From: Acidimicrobiia bacterium
GTDB taxonomy: Bacteria; Actinomycetota; Acidimicrobiia; IMCC26256; PALSA-610
Length of the DNA: 64,000 nucleotides
Reading direction: 5' to 3'
Assembly (NCBI GenBank): GCA_038209365.1
Contig: JBBQXS010000013.1
Span: 28,959-92,958 of the forward strand
Part shown: positions 18,602-41,932 of the stretch, piece by piece
How the letters are laid out: every line of letters begins with the position of its first letter
How positions within the stretch are numbered: position 1 is the stretch's first letter
Translations under genes and position numbers: made by a program
Notes under the pieces: model-generated
What the model was told of the DNA's origin: nothing
The model's input: the letters and a program-made list of their open reading frames with translations, nothing else
Database searches by the model: none

Positions 18602-19111
18602 GTGGCCCGGGCGCTCCTGCTCAATGCCAGCTTTGAGCCGTTGTGTGTCGTGCCGGCCCGGCGCGCCGTCGTGCTCGTCCTCAAGGAGAAGGCCGAGATC
18701 GTCCACCGCAACGGTGCCGAGTTCCGCTCCGAGCGACGCACTGTGCCGGTGCCGGCGGTGATCCGTCTCGTGCACTTCGTACGCGTTCCGTTCCGAGCTA
18801 CCGCGCCGCTGTCCCGGCGCGCGGTCTTCGCGCGTGACGCGCACCGCTGCCAGTACTGCGGGGGATCGGCCGAGAACCTCGACCACGTGCTGCCGCGGTC
18901 GCGCTGCGGACCGCACACGTGGGAGAACGTGGTGGCGTCGTGCCGCGCGTGCAACGCCCGCAAGGAGGACCGCCTGCCGGGGGAGTGCGGGATGACGCTG
19001 CGCCGCACCCCGGTCGCGCCCCACGCGACACGATCCCTGATCGTCTCCGCCGGCCCGATCGACCCGACCTGGCACGAGTATCTCGGCAGCGAGGAAGCGG
19101 TCTCGGCCTGA
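18602..19111 (+). CDS. HNH endonuclease domain protein
   Basis: CQYCGG...LDHVLPRS...WENVVASCRACNARK (HNH with two CxxC pairs). Confidence 0.8.
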   Translation: MARALLLNASFEPLCVVPARRAVVLVLKEKAEIVHRNGAEFRSERRTVPVPAVIRLVHFVRVPFRATAPLSRRAVFARDAHRCQYCGGSAENLDHVLPRSRCGPHTWENVVASCRACNARKEDRLPGECGMTLRRTPVAPHATRSLIVSAGPIDPTWHEYLGSEEAVSA

Positions 19112-19123
19112 AGCGCGCCGCCG

Positions 19124-22100
19124 TCACTCCCCGGCGGCGCTCTCTTCCTCGGCGCTCGGCGCGATCCGTGCGAGCAGCACGGCGAGCTCGTCACGTGCCC
19201 GCTGGCGCTCGCGCCGCGCCGCATCCCGGATCTCCGCAGCATGACGCTCGGCTTCGGCGCGAAGGTCGGCCGCGTGCTGCTCGCCCTCGGCCCGCATGCC
19301 GGCGGCCTCGCGACGGGCGGTGTCGCGTAGCTCCGAGGCATGTTGCTCGGCCGCACGGCGGAGCTCGGCGGCGTCGTGCTCGGCCTCGGCGCGGTGCCCC
19401 GCGGCGAACTGCTCGGCCTCGTCCCGCAGCCTCGCGGCCTGCCGCCCCGCCTTCTCGAGGATCTCCGCTGCGTCGAGACCCGCGAGCTCGGCGTCGCGTG
19501 ATTTCTCGATCCGGTCCGCGGTCCGGGCGAGACGCTTGCGCTGCTTGGTGAGTCGCTGTTCGAGATCGGAGATCCGCTCGAACAGGTTGCCGATCAGATC
19601 GACCCGCTGCGCGTCGGCCAGCGCGGACTCCTGCACCCGCGTGCGGAGCTCCCGGGCATCCTCCTGGGCGAGCTGGCGGATGCCTTCGGCAGTGGTCAGC
19701 GCATCGCGCCGGATCGACTCCGCTTCCTGCAACGCCTGATGCCGGAGCGCTTCGGCCTCCGCTTGGGCCTGCGTGAGGAGCTCATCGGACTCGCGCCGGG
19801 CGTCCTTCGACGGGATTGCGGCGAGTGCCCGGTCGAGCTCGGTCTCCAGCTCCTCGGCGTGCGCGCCGAGCGCGTCGAGCGTGCCCTGGGTGTTCTCGAG
19901 CCGTTCTGCGAGGTCCTCGGCGTCCGCGCGGGCCTCGGTGGCGGCCGCGCGCAGCTCGTCCCGGTCATTCTCGTTGCCGGCCAGCACGCCTTCGAGACGT
20001 GTGATCTCGACGCGGGCCTCGGCCAGGTCGTTGACGGCCTGATCGCGGCCCGCAACCGACTCGACGAGCACGGCCTCGATGCGCACGATCTCCGCTCGTG
20101 CAGTGTCGAGCTGCGCGCGCGTTTCTTCATGGCGGGCGACCTCGGTGGCGAGCGCCTCCTCGAGTCCCGCGATCTCGGACTGCGCGTCTTCGAGCTGCGC
20201 GAGTGCGTCGTCGCGGTCTCCCGTGCGCTCTGCGATTTGGGCGGCAACGGCGAGTTCCAAACGCGAGGTCTCGGCGCGGGCGTGCTCGAGCTGCGCGAGC
20301 GCGTTGTCGCGCTCTTGCGCACGCTCGCCGACCGCCCTCTCGAGACGAGCGACGTCGGCTCGCGTGGCGTCGAGCATGGCTTGCGCAGCCTCACGCTCTG
20401 CCCCGTGGCTCTCGAGCGTCGCTTCGAGACGGGCCAGCCGTTGTTGCGCGTCACCCAGCGAGGCGATTGCCTCGTCGCGCTCGGACGTCCTGCGACCGAG
20501 CATGGCCCGCGCGTCGTTGCGTTCCGCGGTGCGGTCGGCCAGCGAGGCGCGGGCGTCGTCGCGTGCCCGTGCCGCTTCGTCGCGCTCACGTTCGCGCGCG
20601 CCGGTGATCTCGCTGAAGCCGGCAGCCGCTTGCGCAAGCTGCTCCTGCACGGCCGCTTCCTGGCGACGGGAATCGTCGAGCTCGGCGCGCACGTGGTCGC
20701 GGTCGCGGCCGATCTCGGCGAGCGCGCCCTCGAGCTCGCTCACCCGGGCACGTACGGCGTCGAGATCGCGGGTGTCGCTCTCGCGGTCCGCTTCCAGCTC
20801 CCGCAGCTCGGCCGCGCGCCGGCGGGCTTCGTCGAGTTGCGCGGCGAGTCCGTCGTGCTCGGCGTCCCGGTCGGCGACCGCGCGTTCCAACCCCTCAACG
20901 CGGGTCTCGGCGGTGGCCAGCGCCCGATCACGCTCGGCGATGCCGTGTTCGAGCTCGCCCAGCATCGACTCGAGGTCCGCGACGCGCCGGGCCAGGTCCG
21001 ATGCCCGGCGTTCGCCGCGCTCGGCGTCACCGGCACGCTGCGCGAGCGACCGCTCGAGCTCGGCGATCTGCCCGGTCAACTGCGTCCGGGCCCGGTCGTG
21101 CTCGGCGATCCGCGCCTGCGCCTGGGCCAGTTCGCGTTCGATGCCGGCGCGGTCGGCGTCGGCGTCCCGGACTCGCGTCTCGAGGCGGGCGGTGTGCTGC
21201 TGCAACTGCCCCAGCTCGGTACGCGCTTCGTTGCGTTCGGCGCCGTGGAGCTCGACGCTCGCGCGCAACGCCTCGATCTCGTCGCGGGCATGCCCGAGCG
21301 CCACCTCGAGCTCTCCCCGCCGGGCAATGGCGTCGTCGCGCTCCGCCGCGCGCCGGTCGACCTCGGAAGCCGAACCCTGCGCGGCCTCCCGGGCACGCGC
21401 CAGGTCGGCCCGAGCGGCGTCCAGCTGCTCGCGCGCCCGCTCGGCCTCGCGCTCGGCGGTCTCGCGAGCTTCTTTGATCGTGGCCAGCTCCGCACGTACC
21501 TGCTCGAGCTCGGCGTGCCAGCGTTCGGCGCGCGCGTCCGCTCGCTCGCCGGTGAGTTCGTCATCCGCGTCGGTTGTGTCATCCGGCGTGGGCGCTTGGG
21601 CTTCGGGCTCGTCGACCACGTCGACCGGTGGCTTCTCCTCGAACTGGGCTGCGTCCTGTACCGCGTCCACGCGTTCGGGAAACGGTGGCGCTTCTTCAAC
21701 CGACGATGGTGTGGGTGCCGCGTCGTGCATCGATGACGCGGCACGGTGCATCGTAGGTGTGAGGTCGTCGCCTTCCACACGCGACAGAAACTTCTTTGCG
21801 CTGTTGAGCGGGTCGTCGCCGGGCTCGACGCCGAGCTCGCCGAGCAACACGCGGATGCGGTCGACGGTATCGCGCGCGCCGGACGCGGTGGGCGGCGCGT
21901 CGCGTGGAACGGCGCGGTGCGTTGCCGCGAACACCTCGAAGCTCTGATAACCGAGCTTGTGCAGCGCGTCGGCTTCGGCGAGGAGTGCGTCGTTGTGCTC
22001 ACGACGCGCGCCTGCGGTCGCAAGGAACCGGTTCGCCTTCCGTTCACATTCGACGACGCGGCGGTGGAACTCCCATATCTCGAGGGCCGCGGCTTCGGGT

Positions 22101-22279
22101 GGCGGTGTCGTGGTGCCCGCGCGGTTCGCGGCGTCGCGGAGCGCGTCGAGCGGACCCGCGGTCGACGACGCGGGCTGGCGGGTTGCGTCAGGAGGGCCGG
22201 GCGAGGCGTCCTCCACGCCTCCATCATCGGTCACGCGCGGGTCCGCCTGAGATCGGCTCCATCCGAACCAGATCGACAT
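19124..22279 (-). CDS. Giant coiled-coil protein (1051 aa), function unknown
   Basis: ATG at 22279 with SD GGGAGG (6-nt spacer). About 260-aa acidic/Pro-rich head, then about 780 aa of E/R/A/D/L-rich helix with recurring (E/D)RDxA(L/V)xxLExAxxExxxLE modules. C-terminal AExHAAE(L/I)R repeats. Confidence 0.8.
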   Translation of the reverse strand: MSIWFGWSRSQADPRVTDDGGVEDASPGPPDATRQPASSTAGPLDALRDAANRAGTTTPPPEAAALEIWEFHRRVVECERKANRFLATAGARREHNDALLAEADALHKLGYQSFEVFAATHRAVPRDAPPTASGARDTVDRIRVLLGELGVEPGDDPLNSAKKFLSRVEGDDLTPTMHRAASSMHDAAPTPSSVEEAPPFPERVDAVQDAAQFEEKPPVDVVDEPEAQAPTPDDTTDADDELTGERADARAERWHAELEQVRAELATIKEARETAEREAERAREQLDAARADLARAREAAQGSASEVDRRAAERDDAIARRGELEVALGHARDEIEALRASVELHGAERNEARTELGQLQQHTARLETRVRDADADRAGIERELAQAQARIAEHDRARTQLTGQIAELERSLAQRAGDAERGERRASDLARRVADLESMLGELEHGIAERDRALATAETRVEGLERAVADRDAEHDGLAAQLDEARRRAAELRELEADRESDTRDLDAVRARVSELEGALAEIGRDRDHVRAELDDSRRQEAAVQEQLAQAAAGFSEITGARERERDEAARARDDARASLADRTAERNDARAMLGRRTSERDEAIASLGDAQQRLARLEATLESHGAEREAAQAMLDATRADVARLERAVGERAQERDNALAQLEHARAETSRLELAVAAQIAERTGDRDDALAQLEDAQSEIAGLEEALATEVARHEETRAQLDTARAEIVRIEAVLVESVAGRDQAVNDLAEARVEITRLEGVLAGNENDRDELRAAATEARADAEDLAERLENTQGTLDALGAHAEELETELDRALAAIPSKDARRESDELLTQAQAEAEALRHQALQEAESIRRDALTTAEGIRQLAQEDARELRTRVQESALADAQRVDLIGNLFERISDLEQRLTKQRKRLARTADRIEKSRDAELAGLDAAEILEKAGRQAARLRDEAEQFAAGHRAEAEHDAAELRRAAEQHASELRDTARREAAGMRAEGEQHAADLRAEAERHAAEIRDAARRERQRARDELAVLLARIAPSAEEESAAGE

Positions 22280-22330
22280 GGTGAGCCTCCCGGTCGACGG
22301 CGGACGAGCACGCGGGCGTCATGCGTGCCG

Positions 22331-22372
22331 ACTGCAGTGCGGCGAACTGCAGGGGGAACTGCAGGGGGAAAC
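22331..22372. repeat. Three ACTGCAG-containing direct repeats, including a perfect tandem GAACTGCAGGGG x2
   Basis: ACTGCAG at 22331, 22346 and 22358. GAACTGCAGGGG at 22344-22355 and 22356-22367, then GAAAC. Confidence 0.7.
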
Positions 22373-22373
22373 G

Positions 22374-22403
22374 TTGACGCCGTGGAGGATTGTGTCATAG
22401 GGT
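22374..22403 (+). promoter_or_regulatory. Candidate mraZ (dcw) promoter
   Basis: TTGACG (22374-22379), 18-nt spacer, TAGGGT (22398-22403, fits the actinobacterial TANNNT). About 80 nt upstream of the mraZ ATG. Confidence 0.45.
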
Positions 22404-22421
22404 GGTGCCCAGTGGTGGAAA
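22382..22421 (+). promoter_or_regulatory. Candidate MraZ operator: four 10-bp-phased GTG[G/T] boxes
   Basis: GTGGAGGATT GTGTCATAGG GTGGTGCCCA GTGGTGGAAA, with boxes at 22382, 22392, 22402 and 22412. Overlaps the putative -10. Confidence 0.55.
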
Positions 22422-22483
22422 GGGGAGGGCCCCGGAGCGACATCGGGGCGGGCCCCGCAAGACACGAGACAGAGGTGGCGCAG

Positions 22484-22906
22484 ATGTTCCTGGGGGAGTA
22501 CCAGCACTCCCTCGACGCGAAGGGTCGGGTCATCCTGCCGGCCCGCTTTCGTGACCAGCTCGAGGGAGGTGCGGTGATGGCGAGGGGGCTCGACGGCTGC
22601 CTGGACGTATATCCGCCCGCTGAGTTCCAGCGTCGCGCCTCCGAAGTGAGCGAGGCGCGCAAACGCGGTCCTCGCGAACGCCAAGCCGCCCGCTCGTTCT
22701 TCTCGGGAGCCGGCCCCGCCGTGCCGGACGGCCAGGGTCGCGTTGCGATCCCGCCGCACCTGCGCGAGTACGCAGCCCTCGACCGGGAGGTCGTCGTCAC
22801 GGGCGCGTTCGACCACATCGAGATCTGGGACGCGCAGCGATTCCGCGAACGAGACGCCGAAGGCATCGCGTCGATGGCCGCCGGCGAAGGGATCGACGGC
22901 CTCTGA
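22484..22906 (+). CDS. mraZ: Transcriptional regulator MraZ
   Basis: MFLGEYQHSLDAKGRVILPARFR and a second SpoVT/AbrB-like half (DGQGRVAIPPHLR). SD AGAGG 8 nt upstream. Confidence 0.9.
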   Translation: MFLGEYQHSLDAKGRVILPARFRDQLEGGAVMARGLDGCLDVYPPAEFQRRASEVSEARKRGPRERQAARSFFSGAGPAVPDGQGRVAIPPHLREYAALDREVVVTGAFDHIEIWDAQRFRERDAEGIASMAAGEGIDGL

Positions 22907-22976
22907 TCCTGGTTGGTCGTGCCATTTCGTACGGACATGACGTTCAAACATTGACATAGAGACGAAGCCGCATGCT

Positions 22977-23104
22977 CCGGACTCGTCTTCAGCCCCCCGG
23001 CCGGCGCGGTTGTTGGCCCCTACTCCGCCCGCTTTCAGCCGTAGCCGACCCGGGGAGACATCCCGGGCGGTGCCTGTCGACCGGGGGGCTGAAGACGGGA
23101 TCGG
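22977..23104 (+). ncRNA. Structured leader in the mraZ-rsmH spacer; candidate mraW RNA motif
   Basis: Perfect 16-bp long-range helix GTCTTCAGCCCCCCGG (22985-23000) / CCGGGGGGCTGAAGAC (23081-23096), extendable to 22977/23104. It encloses the inner hairpin CCCGGG-N7-CCCGGG (23050-23068). Sits immediately 5' of rsmH (mraW). Confidence 0.4.
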
Positions 23105-23142: not shown

Positions 23143-24123
23143 GTGGAAGCGGAGTTCTCGCATCTCCCGGTGATGGCACGGGAGGTGGTGGAGCTCCTCT
23201 TGCCCGTGCCCGCCGGGTTGATCGTCGACGGCACGGTCGGTGGCGCAGGCCACGCGGCCCTGCTGCTCGACGCGAGACCCGACGTGCGAGTGCTGGGCCT
23301 CGACCGAGACGCCGACGCCGTTGCCGCTGCTCGTTCTCGGCTGGCGTCCTTCGGGTCGCGGGCACAGGTGGTGCACGGCGGCTTCGAGCGGCTGGGCGAG
23401 CTGGTCGAACGTCACGGCGAGGGAGAACAGGTGATGGGCATCCTCATGGACCTCGGGGTGAGCAGCCCGCAGCTCGACCGTCCCGAGCGAGGCTTCTCCT
23501 ACCGCTTCGACGCGCCGCTCGACATGCGAATGGACGCGAAGCAGTCGCTCACCGCGGCCGACGTCGTGAACGGCTACGACGAGGCGCAGCTCGCCACGGT
23601 GATCTCCCAGTACGGCGAGGAGCGGTTCGCGCGCAGGGTCGCGCACGCGATCGTCGCCGCCCGGCCGCTGCACAGCACGCGAGAGCTGGCCGACGTCGTG
23701 CGCGGGGCGATCCCCGCCGCGACACGACGGCGCGGTCCCCACCCGGCCCGGCGCACGTTCCAGGCCATCCGGATGGAGGTCAACCGGGAGCTGCCCAACC
23801 TCGCCGAGGGGCTCCAGGAGTCGGTGCACGTCGTCGGGCCCGGCGGCCGGGTGCTCGTGCTCGCGTACCACTCGCTCGAAGATCGCATCGTCAAGACGAC
23901 CTTCGCCCGCTGGGCGGGCGAAGACCGCGACGCCTACGAGCCCCCCAAGCTTCCTGTTCCCCCGGCGAAACGGCACGCGCTCATGCGGGTGCTCACTCGG
24001 AGACCGTTGCGCCCGCGCGCAGACGTGGTGGCCGCGAATCCGCGTGCCGAGAGCGCCCGTCTGCGCGCGGTCGAACGGCTCGACGTCCCGGACGGGCCCG
24101 AGTTCCCCGACGCGGTCGCGTGA
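23143..24123 (+). CDS. rsmH: 16S rRNA (cytosine1402-N4)-methyltransferase
   Basis: GTG 23143 with SD GAGGAG (5-nt spacer). HLPVMAREVVELL, DGTVGGAGHA, DLGVSSPQLD, SLEDRIVK. Confidence 0.9.
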   Translation: MEAEFSHLPVMAREVVELLLPVPAGLIVDGTVGGAGHAALLLDARPDVRVLGLDRDADAVAAARSRLASFGSRAQVVHGGFERLGELVERHGEGEQVMGILMDLGVSSPQLDRPERGFSYRFDAPLDMRMDAKQSLTAADVVNGYDEAQLATVISQYGEERFARRVAHAIVAARPLHSTRELADVVRGAIPAATRRRGPHPARRTFQAIRMEVNRELPNLAEGLQESVHVVGPGGRVLVLAYHSLEDRIVKTTFARWAGEDRDAYEPPKLPVPPAKRHALMRVLTRRPLRPRADVVAANPRAESARLRAVERLDVPDGPEFPDAVA

Positions 24124-37308: not shown

Positions 37309-37424
37309 GAAGTTGAGCTTCACGGTTTGAGGATTTTGGCCGGCCAGGAGCCGGCGGAGACGGTCACGACGTGTGCGTAGGCGCTCGTGTCTCGCGGCGA
37401 AGTCAAAAGGGAAAGGTCGCGCAA

Positions 37425-38495
37425 ATGCTCGGCGCTCCGCAGCACTACTTGGCAGTCATCAAGGTCGTCGGCGTCGGGGGCGGCGGCTGTAACGCCGTCA
37501 ACCGGATGATCGACGCCGGGTTGAAGGGCGTCGAGTTCATCGCGATCAACACCGACGCGCAGTCGCTGCTGCTCTCCGACGCGGACGTCAAGCTCGACAT
37601 CGGCCGCCAGCTGACGCGCGGTCTCGGCGCCGGCTCCGATCCCGAGATCGGCCGCCAAGCGGCCGAGGAGCACCGTCAAGAGATCGAGGAGGTGCTGAAG
37701 GGCGCCGACATGGTGTTCATCACCGCCGGCAAGGGTGGTGGCACCGGTACCGGTGGTGCGCCGCTCGTCGCCGAGATCGCCAAGCAGATCGGCGCGCTGA
37801 CCGTCGGTGTCGTGACGCGGCCGTTCAGCTTCGAAGGACGCCGGCGCTCGGTGCAGGCCGACACCGGTATCCAGAAGCTGAAGGAGAAGGTCGACACGAT
37901 CATCATCATCCCGAACGAGCGCCTGCTCCAGGTGAGCGACGAGCGCACGTCGATGTTGAACGCGTTCAAGATGGCGGACGAGGTCCTGCTGCAGGGCGTC
38001 CAGGGCATCACCGACCTCATCACGACACCCGGCCTCATCAACACCGACTTCGCGGACGTGAAGATGATCCTCAGCAACGCCGGCTCGGCGCTCATGGGGG
38101 TGGGCTATGCATCCGGCGACGGCCGCGCCGTCGCGGCGGCGCGTGCGGCGATCTCGAGCCCGTTGCTCGAGGCGAGCATCGAAGGCGCGCGGGGGATCCT
38201 GCTCAACGTCAGCGGCCCGTCGGATCTCGGCTTGTTCGAGTTGCACGAGGCCGCCCAGATCATCGGCGAAGCCGGGCATGCCGATGCCAACGTGATCTTC
38301 GGCGCGGTGATCGACGATGCCCTCGGAGACGAGGTGCGCATCACCGTGATCGCCGCGGGCTTCGACCGCTTCGAAGGTGAGTCCCGCACCCAGCGCAGCG
38401 CCTCGCTCGGTCTCGACGACGAGGACTCGCTCGCCGGCGACGACGCGCTCGACCTCGGCGACGACGACTTCGACGTTCCTGAATTCCTGCGGTGA
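37425..38495 (+). CDS. ftsZ: Cell division GTPase FtsZ
   Basis: [27 protein letters not shown] tubulin signature, NTDAQ. ATG at 37425. Confidence 0.95.
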
Positions 38496-39955: not shown

Positions 39956-40513
39956 ATGTCGGTCTTCCACAAGACGATGGTCTGGCTGGGCCTCGTCGAT
40001 GACGAAGAGTATTACGGCGACGACGAGTACTACGTCGACGAGTACGGCGAACCGGTTGCCGCACCCGCGCGCCAGCCTTCACGCGGGACAGCGACGGTCG
40101 CTGCGCCCGCGCCGCCCGAGTCCAGTCCGCTGACGGTGATACGCAGCCGTCGCGAACGCGACGATGCGAGTCCCGCCGGCGCGCCGGCCGTGGCGCGCCC
40201 GCCCACGGTGAAGCCGATCCCGATGCCCGCCACGCGCGTGCACGTCATGGAGCCGAAGGGCTTCAACGACGCACAGGAGGTCGGCGATCGCCTCAAGGCC
40301 GGGCAGCCGGTCATCCTCAACCTGCAAGGCGTCGATCGCGACCTGCAGCGGCGCCTGATCGACTTCTCGAGCGGACTCGCATACGCACTCAACGGCACGA
40401 TGTCGAAGGCCGCCGACCAAGTCTTCCTCCTGACGCCGTCCAACGTGGAAGTCTCCGAAGAGGAGAAGGAGCGCCTGCAGGCTCGCGGCCTGTATCGCGC
40501 GTCGCGCTCGTGA
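39956..40513 (+). CDS. sepF: Cell division protein SepF
   Basis: Amphipathic N-terminus MSVFHKTMVWLGL. C-terminal DAQEVGDRLKAGQPVILNL...DFSSGLAYALNG. Confidence 0.85.
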   Translation: MSVFHKTMVWLGLVDDEEYYGDDEYYVDEYGEPVAAPARQPSRGTATVAAPAPPESSPLTVIRSRRERDDASPAGAPAVARPPTVKPIPMPATRVHVMEPKGFNDAQEVGDRLKAGQPVILNLQGVDRDLQRRLIDFSSGLAYALNGTMSKAADQVFLLTPSNVEVSEEEKERLQARGLYRASRS

Positions 40514-40752: not shown

Positions 40753-40801
40753 ATCGCGTCGGGTACCCAACACCGGGAGTGGGCGGGTCTACAGTGGTGT
40801 G

Positions 40802-41932
40802 ATGGAAATCAGCCCCCGTGAGCTTCGTGACGTAGAGATCCGGGAATCGCTCCGCGGCTACAACCGCGACGAGGTGAACGACCTCCTCGAGCGGGCGGCG
40901 GGCACCATCGAGGCCACCACCGACCGGCTCCAGCAGCTGACCGAACGACTCGCGTCGGCCCAGAGCGAGGCGGGCCGGACCCGCGAGACCGAAGACGTGT
41001 TGCACCGGACCCTCTTGCTGGCCCAACGGGCCGCCGACGAGGCGGTCGCCGAGGCGACTGCCAAAGCCCGGCAGCTGCTCGATGATGCCGACATCCAGTC
41101 GCGCCGTCTGGTCGCGGAAAGCGAGTCGGACGCCCGGCGCAAGGGTGAGGCCGAGCGCCGGCGGCTCGAAGAGGAGATCCTCGACCTCGCGGGACGCCGC
41201 GAGTCGTTGCTCGCCGATGTCGAGGCGCTCACGCGGTTCGAGACCGAGTATCGCGAGCGCATGGCGCGCGCCCTGGAAGCCGATCTCTCTGCGCTGCGCT
41301 CGCGCCCGACGACCGCGCCGGGAACGCGTCCGGAGGCATCGGACGTCGCGGTACCGAGCGGCGGGCAACCGCACGCCCCGCAGGGCGCACCGTCAGCCCC
41401 GTCCGCGCCGAAGGAGGCGTCGGCGCAAGCGCAAGCGCCCGCACCGGCGTCGCGCGCAGTACCGCCCGCGCCCGCGCCCGCCGCACCTTCGGCAATGCCC
41501 GACAAGAACGTGACCGCGGGCGAGACCCCACCCGCGCGCGGGGGCGCCAACATGGGCACGCACGAGGTCGATGTGCGCACGCTGTTCGAACAGTCGAAGA
41601 ACGCGGCGTCCCCGGCGCCCAACGCGGGCCCATCCAGCTCGGCCCCACCGAATGCAGGCATGCCGGCCCCGCCCGAGCAATCGTCCGCGAGGCAGATGCC
41701 GAAGCCGCCGCAACAGGGCGGCGCGCCCGGTCCGGCCGAGTTGCTCGGCAACGACGGTCGCGACGCGGACGTCCTCGACGACGACGCGTTCTTCGCGACG
41801 CTGCGCGACGCGGTGCACGACGAAGCGCCGCTCGGGCCGCGCGATGACGACGACCCCACCGGCGATCAGCGCTTCTTCGACCAGGACGCCGATCGGGGCA
41901 CCTTCCGCGACGTCTTCCGCCGCCGCCGCTGA
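40802..41932 (+). CDS. divIVA: DivIVA/Wag31 family protein with long Pro/Ala-rich C-terminal tail
   Basis: N-terminal DivIVA domain (EISPRELRDVEIRESLRGYNRDEVNDLLE) followed by a coiled coil. The track starts at GTG 40799, one codon upstream. Confidence 0.85.
   Translation: MEISPRELRDVEIRESLRGYNRDEVNDLLERAAGTIEATTDRLQQLTERLASAQSEAGRTRETEDVLHRTLLLAQRAADEAVAEATAKARQLLDDADIQSRRLVAESESDARRKGEAERRRLEEEILDLAGRRESLLADVEALTRFETEYRERMARALEADLSALRSRPTTAPGTRPEASDVAVPSGGQPHAPQGAPSAPSAPKEASAQAQAPAPASRAVPPAPAPAAPSAMPDKNVTAGETPPARGGANMGTHEVDVRTLFEQSKNAASPAPNAGPSSSAPPNAGMPAPPEQSSARQMPKPPQQGGAPGPAELLGNDGRDADVLDDDAFFATLRDAVHDEAPLGPRDDDDPTGDQRFFDQDADRGTFRDVFRRRR

Follow-up and report, generated by a model that had tools for sequence, protein, structure and literature searches.

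Crescentin and RsmP are bacterial coiled-coil-rich proteins of an intermediate-filament-like kind, and in Scy and FilP the coiled coil is built on a 51-residue repeat unit. Together with DivIVA and GpsB, Scy and FilP form a DivIVA-like group defined by an N-terminal RGYDxxEVD motif directly before a dimerising heptad coiled coil; hendecads are also stated for Scy and FilP (PMC9858780). Here we describe a gene for a 1051-residue coiled-coil protein that lies next to mraZ, at the head of the cluster of genes for division and cell wall (dcw), in a 64,000-nucleotide stretch of contig JBBQXS010000013.1 from an Acidimicrobiia bacterium (this whole stretch is termed the window, and positions are counted from its first letter). 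The protein represents a previously undescribed family, which in the sampling to date is confined to uncultured Actinomycetota of the Acidimicrobiia type. We read it, tentatively, as a cytoplasmic, non-enzymatic, elongated coiled-coil scaffold, which by its synteny alone is probably tied to division or envelope growth, and which may be controlled by MraZ. MraZ is among the most conserved bacterial regulators, with few direct targets established outside its own operon. The cell biology of the Acidimicrobiia, which occur in abundance in soils, waters and wastewater, is almost unknown, and the family would be a first lineage-specific structural candidate for them.

The coiled-coil gene occupies 19124–22279 on the minus strand, from an ATG start codon at 22277–22279 to a stop codon at 19124–19126. 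A Shine-Dalgarno sequence GGGAGG at 22286–22291, separated from the ATG by a 6-nt spacer, agrees with the preliminary description of the gene, and a Shine-Dalgarno-like purine tract occupies the equivalent place in 8 of 8 aligned orthologous loci. The G+C content of the window is 69%, and G+C at the first and third codon positions (GC1/GC3) does not separate this open reading frame (ORF) from an antisense ORF at 19739–21736, the two showing equal bias. Since GC3 is undecisive, the reading frame was settled by homologue alignments and by the ratio of nonsynonymous to synonymous substitution rates (dN/dS). Alignments with three full-length orthologues (81%, 72% and 47% identical) extend from the first to the last residue and hold in-frame indels only, and dN/dS against two orthologues is 0.29 and 0.26 overall, ranging from 0.16 to 0.45 by segment and lowest in the head core (0.20–0.24) and the C-terminal part (0.16–0.21). 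These results establish the gene as real and as subject to purifying selection.

Transcription of the coiled-coil gene and of mraZ (22484–22906, plus strand; Pfam PF02381, 117 bits), with which the dcw cluster begins, diverges from a 204-bp spacer, close to the ~200 bp of common control region first described. Wherever the upstream DNA is readable, in 15 distinct lineages, the gene is divergent from mraZ; these are the window and 14 further lineages (L001–L007, L010, L012, L014, L016, L018, L024 and L026). Members whose head domains share only 33–46% identity keep this adjacency, even as the gene on the downstream side changes.

The control region proposed at the outset proves to carry a MraZ-type operator, GTGG-N6-GTGT-N6-GTGG-N6-GTGG, at 22382–22415 on the plus strand, recognised by its match to the published MraZ box consensus (PMC12957436; bioRxiv 10.1101/2022.02.09.479790). 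Its sequence is GTGGAG-GATT-GTGTCA-TAGG-GTGGTG-CCCA-GTGGTG, and a fifth, degenerate box GGGG follows at 22422–22425. This array of four GTG(G/T) boxes, spaced by 10 bp, is present a single time in the window, against 0 expected, and a single time per locus in 19 of the 20 loci examined. In the alignment of orthologous loci the operator and a TTGACG at 22374–22379 are together the only deeply conserved intergenic element; the operator lies 72–102 nt upstream of the start codon in long forms of the gene (102 nt in the window) and 165 nt upstream in the short form treated below. The TTGACG, invariant in the alignment, would be the −35 box of a probable mraZ promoter, TTGACG-N18-TAGGGT (22374–22403, plus strand), read from the sequence and overlapped by the operator. 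On the minus strand TGACACAAT resembles an extended −10 element, and is a candidate only.

Two further features of this spacer can be recorded. A tandem duplication, AACTGCAGGGGG twice at 22345–22368 (plus strand), with a third CTGCAG at 22332–22337, belongs to a 27-nt insertion 5′ of the coiled-coil gene that is found in 0 of 7 aligned orthologous loci. The 5′ leader of mraZ (22428–22460, plus strand), between the operator and the mraZ start, holds a G+C-rich inverted repeat, GGGCCCCG ... CGGGGC, overlapping GGGGCGGGCCCC; it is partly conserved in close relatives.

The protein is composed mainly of A (20.8%), E (13.8%), R (13.7%), L (9.2%) and D (8.8%), with a net charge of −82, and can be divided into the following segments, all encoded on the minus strand. 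Residues 1–12 (22244–22279) are an aromatic and basic motif, MSIWFGWSRSQA, predicted to be unstructured; this motif starts every complete family member, in a second subgroup as MWFGRSRVQDR. Residues 13–60 (22100–22243) form a Pro-rich, low-confidence stretch, taken as disordered, with a short conserved helix, LDALRDA (43–53). A family-specific head domain of five helices follows at residues 61–172 (21764–22099), modelled with a predicted local distance difference test score (pLDDT) above 90; in the AlphaFold2 model, made from a 26-sequence alignment (mean pLDDT 74.9, predicted template modelling score 0.44), its helices span residues 62–82, 89–109, 114–120, 135–148 and 157–172. No Pfam, NCBIfam or PDB family matched this domain, the PDB being searched by sequence with the head profile. 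Residues 173–244 (21548–21763) are an acidic, Pro-rich, disordered linker with a net charge of −15 and 15% Pro, its length varying among relatives. The acidic, Pro-rich head of residues ~1–260 described at first is a composite of these four parts.

The rod, residues 245–822 (19814–21547), is a heptad coiled coil with a 28-residue repeat, anchored by the motifs ADARAERWHAE and LDALGAHAEE. Its Fourier power is maximal at a period of 3.5, and the registers are long and unbroken with a few stutter-like shifts. Autocorrelation gives z = 12 at a lag of 28 residues, that is four heptads, with further peaks at 56 and 84, so the recurring module of 27–32 residues that had been proposed is present and its length can be refined to 28. 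The pattern [ED]R[DN]xA occurs eight times against 0.28 expected in shuffles. At ~575 residues the rod would measure ~85 nm if helical throughout.

Past the protein's only Pro break, AIPSKD (821–826), begins a conserved C-terminal module, residues 826–935 (19475–19804), which is the sole part kept in short forms of 100–109 amino acids. It consists of helix A (LLxQAxAEAExLRxQAxxEAExIRRDALTTAEGIRQLAQEDAR) and a basic helix B (LxxRIxxLExRLxKQRKRLxR). Residues 936–1020 (19220–19474) are variable 11-residue repeats of the AEQHAAELRRA type, with 11- and 22-residue indels between orthologues, and in the orthologue alignment residues 1021–1051 (19127–19219) are a conserved tail, RRERQRARDELAVLLARIAP, with an acidic end. 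Residues 823–1042 hold ~20 hendecads in a single register (z = 8.3 for the 11-residue period); the C-terminal block of AExHAAE(L/I)R repeats noted at first is real, and is part of this larger region. The periodicity is therefore heptad in residues 245–822 and hendecad in residues 823–1042. AlphaFold predicts residues 826–1051 as essentially one continuous helix (pLDDT 91.9). The hendecad part, of ~215 residues and ~32 nm, holds the most conserved sequence of the protein.

Neither Walker A (GxxxxGK[ST]) nor Walker B (hhhhD[DE]) motifs were found in the protein, nor was any transmembrane segment, the maximum 19-residue hydropathy being 0.81. A secreted or surface M-protein-like protein or a membrane protein was rejected on the same hydropathy value and on an N-terminus unlike a signal peptide. 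Searches of Pfam, NCBIfam and PADLOC with the whole protein, its parts and its relatives gave sub-threshold coiled-coil hits only, and a PDB sequence search with the C-terminal 248 residues gave nothing meaningful. The preliminary description had recognised a long coiled coil, no enzymatic motif and no assignable named family, and on all three points it stands. Membership in a defence system was likewise considered and rejected, PADLOC returning sub-threshold coiled-coil hits only.

The family is very small: searched exhaustively by HMMER with the head profile, 1.84 billion proteins yielded 83 cluster representatives. Their genome records are metagenome-assembled genomes labelled Acidimicrobiia, Actinomycetes or Actinomycetota, and no source names any member beyond ‘hypothetical protein’. 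A full-length homology search was swamped by low-complexity candidates and yielded one hit; separate searches with the head and with the C-terminal module worked. Neither the head nor the C-terminal module was found a second time elsewhere in the window.

The family falls into two subgroups with a common plan: N-terminal motif, head, linker, rod-start motif, rod, rod-end motif, helix A, helix B and tail. The rod-start motif is ADARAERWHAE or AEARAERMHAE, and the rod-end motif is LDAL.AHAE..E.EL. The family consensus is LL..A.AEA..L...A...AE.IR..A for helix A, LE.KL.KQR.RL.R for helix B and A.EIR.AAR..R...R.EL..LL.RL.P for the tail, which then runs into an acidic end. Between its fixed anchors the rod measures 192, 199, 266, 542, 574, 616 or 759 residues, always with heptad-multiple periodicity, and between orthologues that are 72–81% identical there are single uncompensated indels, 33 and 42 residues long in the rod and 11 and 22 residues long in the hendecad block. 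Both ends of the protein are conserved, and the rod varies four-fold through gain or loss of whole repeat blocks. With the short forms counted, the family is a natural series with the same termini and a rod of 0 to ~760 residues, which bears on the part that rod length plays in coiled-coil scaffolds of bacteria.

Frameshifts in the L002, L003/L008, L004/L009, L010, L016 and L023 assemblies split the coiled-coil gene as well as neighbouring housekeeping genes (RsmH, Mur ligases). Several database proteins of 147–303 amino acids are therefore fragments of long genes, broken by frameshifts in long-read metagenome assemblies, and not short homologues.

Genuine short forms were found by searching with the C-terminal module. 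Four proteins of 100–109 amino acids (P0088–P0091) consist of helix A, helix B and tail only, and end in a basic RRKK tail; P0088 matches window residues ~845–919 with E = 2e-10. Their genes (L018, 1994–2317; L019, 953–1276; L020, 1891–2214; L016, 7001–7303) belong to one clade and lie in the slot between mraZ and a gene for an HNH endonuclease. In L018, L019 and L020 the short-form gene points away from mraZ and converges on the HNH gene, which is the same slot as that of the long form, and no head remnant was found upstream of the short-form gene in these three loci. The head and rod are present only in some lineages. Since one clade keeps only the C-terminal module in this slot, the ~100-residue module would be the conserved functional core of the slot.

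How such a protein might work is suggested by its layout. A head, a long heptad rod, a tail and no nucleotide site make it intermediate-filament-like, a term used here for a functional kind and not for a homology family. It shares with crescentin and RsmP this order of parts, the stutter-like register shifts and the lack of a nucleotide-binding site; it differs from them by a folded head domain of its own and by the long tail of hendecads, and there is no detectable homology. The protein may be a structural spacer or scaffold whose conserved ends bind partners or surfaces, with a rod that sets a distance or drives self-assembly, as in bacterial intermediate-filament-like or polar coiled-coil proteins. 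Its role would be in cell division or in growth of the envelope, and MraZ, when bound at the four-box operator, could influence transcription of the coiled-coil gene as well as of the dcw operon. A gene kept divergent from mraZ across the class, with a shared operator region, is a concrete candidate for a MraZ target. A more specific version, which we regard as unlikely, is a previously unrecognised division or morphogenesis scaffold of the Acidimicrobiia's own, under direct MraZ control by way of divergent promoters that overlap; it would then be a synteny-conserved MraZ target outside the dcw operon, in which the C-terminal module would dock on the division or envelope machinery and the rod would be an evolvable spacer setting a cellular distance.

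Several observations count against a MraZ-controlled scaffold in division or envelope growth. The operator, though an array of the kind expected of a direct MraZ target, is not independent evidence of MraZ control of the coiled-coil gene, because the same array also serves mraZ and would stand there in any case. A sigma-70 promoter scan of 18900–22600 found no site for the coiled-coil gene, and phylogenetic footprinting showed no conservation in the stretch from the operator to the start codon of this gene, for which reason its promoter may overlap the operator block. The short forms show that whatever holds a gene in this slot requires neither head nor rod, and the scaffold or spacer role may therefore be a lineage-specific addition. 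Finally, an adjacency conserved within one class could be historical and not functional.

This last point leads to the alternative that survives best, although we consider it somewhat improbable: a structural coiled-coil protein that stands beside mraZ only through a conserved accident, and whose function is unrelated to division and lies, for example, in the organisation of nucleoid or cytoplasm or in protection during stress or dormancy as an acidic helical protein. No sequence feature points to a division partner, and the strong acidity of the protein would suit such a role. The sampled family is taxonomically narrow, so that synteny may reflect common ancestry. The hendecad part is also weakly like the 11/22-mer repeats of apolipoproteins: residues 823–1042 follow an 11-residue pattern, AxxEAxxIRxx, that resembles F-type ATPase b, V-type ATPase E, FliH and apolipoprotein A-IV, although hits to these families fall far below cut-offs and the genomic context is unrelated, so this is a likeness of periodicity and not evidence of homology. 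Against an accident, the mraZ adjacency has survived divergence of the head to 33–46% identity and replacement by the short form, while the other flank changed, and the operator spacing is held at 72–102 nt in long forms. Were the synteny merely historical, the gene would encode one more uncharacterised coiled-coil protein.

The short forms also bear on a second and quite unlikely alternative, in which the ~100-residue C-terminal module acts on MraZ, as an oligomer partner or modulator, or on the dcw leader, for instance through its basic KQRKRL helix, and head and rod are later additions. Module-only short forms fill the same slot, the module lies in the most constrained segment (dN/dS 0.16–0.21), and divergent pairs of a regulator and its partner gene are common. 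However, the module is homologous to no family of DNA-binding proteins or regulators, is predicted to lie within a single long helix, carries a net charge of about −2, and is tied to MraZ by no physical evidence.

The preliminary description had likened the composition and length of the protein to those of Scy, FilP and DivIVA, and a divergent member of the DivIVA-like group (DivIVA, GpsB, FilP or Scy) acting as a polar-growth scaffold would be the corresponding explanation; it is very improbable, and the family membership is largely refuted. Like Streptomyces Scy and FilP, the protein is of actinobacterial origin, very long, non-enzymatic, almost all helical and variable in length, with hendecad segments concentrated in its C-terminal part, and a scaffold role is plausible for it; like DivIVA/Wag31, it is a coiled-coil protein encoded in or beside the actinobacterial dcw cluster. 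Its C-terminal 218 residues also give weak hits to NCBIfam Scy (NF041483, an equivalog model), with 26.8 bits against a cut-off of 1040 and no listing for the full protein, and to Pfam DivIVA (PF05103), with 17.5 bits against a gathering cut-off of 28 and no full-protein hit at E ≤ 1. These scores are below cut-offs, however, and the defining features are missing. Strict and relaxed patterns for the RGYDxxEVD head motif matched 0 of 95 family sequences; the local string that comes closest, LGYQSFEVF, lacks conservation across the family and is modelled between two head helices, not before the coiled coil. The main rod is built of heptads in a 28-residue repeat, unlike Scy and FilP, and at a lag of 51 residues the autocorrelation of rod and C-terminal segments from ten family members gave z values of only −1.7 to +1.3, the dominant lags in these members being multiples of 7 in the rod, 28 among them, and a lag of 11 in C-terminal segments. 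Unlike DivIVA/Wag31, the protein is without a DivIVA domain and is three times longer. The window moreover already has a canonical DivIVA (40799–41932, plus strand; PF05103, 67.9 bits) with the variant motif RGYNRDEVN, to which the coiled-coil protein shows no BLASTP match and an hhalign probability of about 0.1–0.2%. Upstream of this divIVA gene lie those for SepF (39956–40513) and FtsZ (37371–38495).

An SMC-, Rad50- or RecN-like protein, whose coiled coil would fold back to join two terminal ATPase halves, is refuted because there is no nucleotide-binding motif: the composition and heptad pattern are like those of SMC and Rad50 arms, and the best NCBIfam and PADLOC hits are the SMC, Rad50, LmuB and JetC models, but these hits are confined to arm regions and sub-threshold (58.9 bits against a cut-off of 567), no SMC/RecN-type ATPase head or hinge was found, and the 33- and 42-residue rod indels are not compensated between two arms, which excludes a fold-back intramolecular antiparallel arm.

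Downstream of the coiled-coil gene in the window, and convergent with it, is the gene for a 169-residue HNH endonuclease (18602–19111, plus strand), with 12 nt between the two stop codons. No terminator-like site was found between the two genes. The HNH neighbour is frequent in the family, not universal: the usual order downstream is HNH, MoxR, DUF58 and TgpA, and a glyoxalase gene is present in L015. The stop codons of the coiled-coil and HNH genes are 1–17 nt apart in L002, L003 and L013; the gap is 13 nt in L023, and in L018 it reaches 87 nt.

On the other side of mraZ, a conserved non-coding feature was observed. The 64-kb window yielded neither a tRNA gene nor any Rfam family at gathering score, and a structured element of ~130 nt at 22977–23104 (plus strand), between the end of mraZ at 22906 and rsmH (probable GTG start near 23147), had no Rfam match at gathering score or at E ≤ 10, RF01746 included. 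The latter family, the Rfam mraW motif, lies upstream of mraW in Corynebacterium glutamicum (PMC3890552), a place equivalent to that of the element. The element has a 27-nt outer inverted repeat around two inner hairpins, with 61 predicted pairs, 8 of which show compensatory changes. It is nearly invariant in the divergent loci L002, L004, L012, L014 and L018, where the flanking DNA is not conserved, and a conserved TTGACA lies upstream of it at 22944–22949. The element is a candidate for a new or highly divergent leader RNA of rsmH and the dcw cluster.

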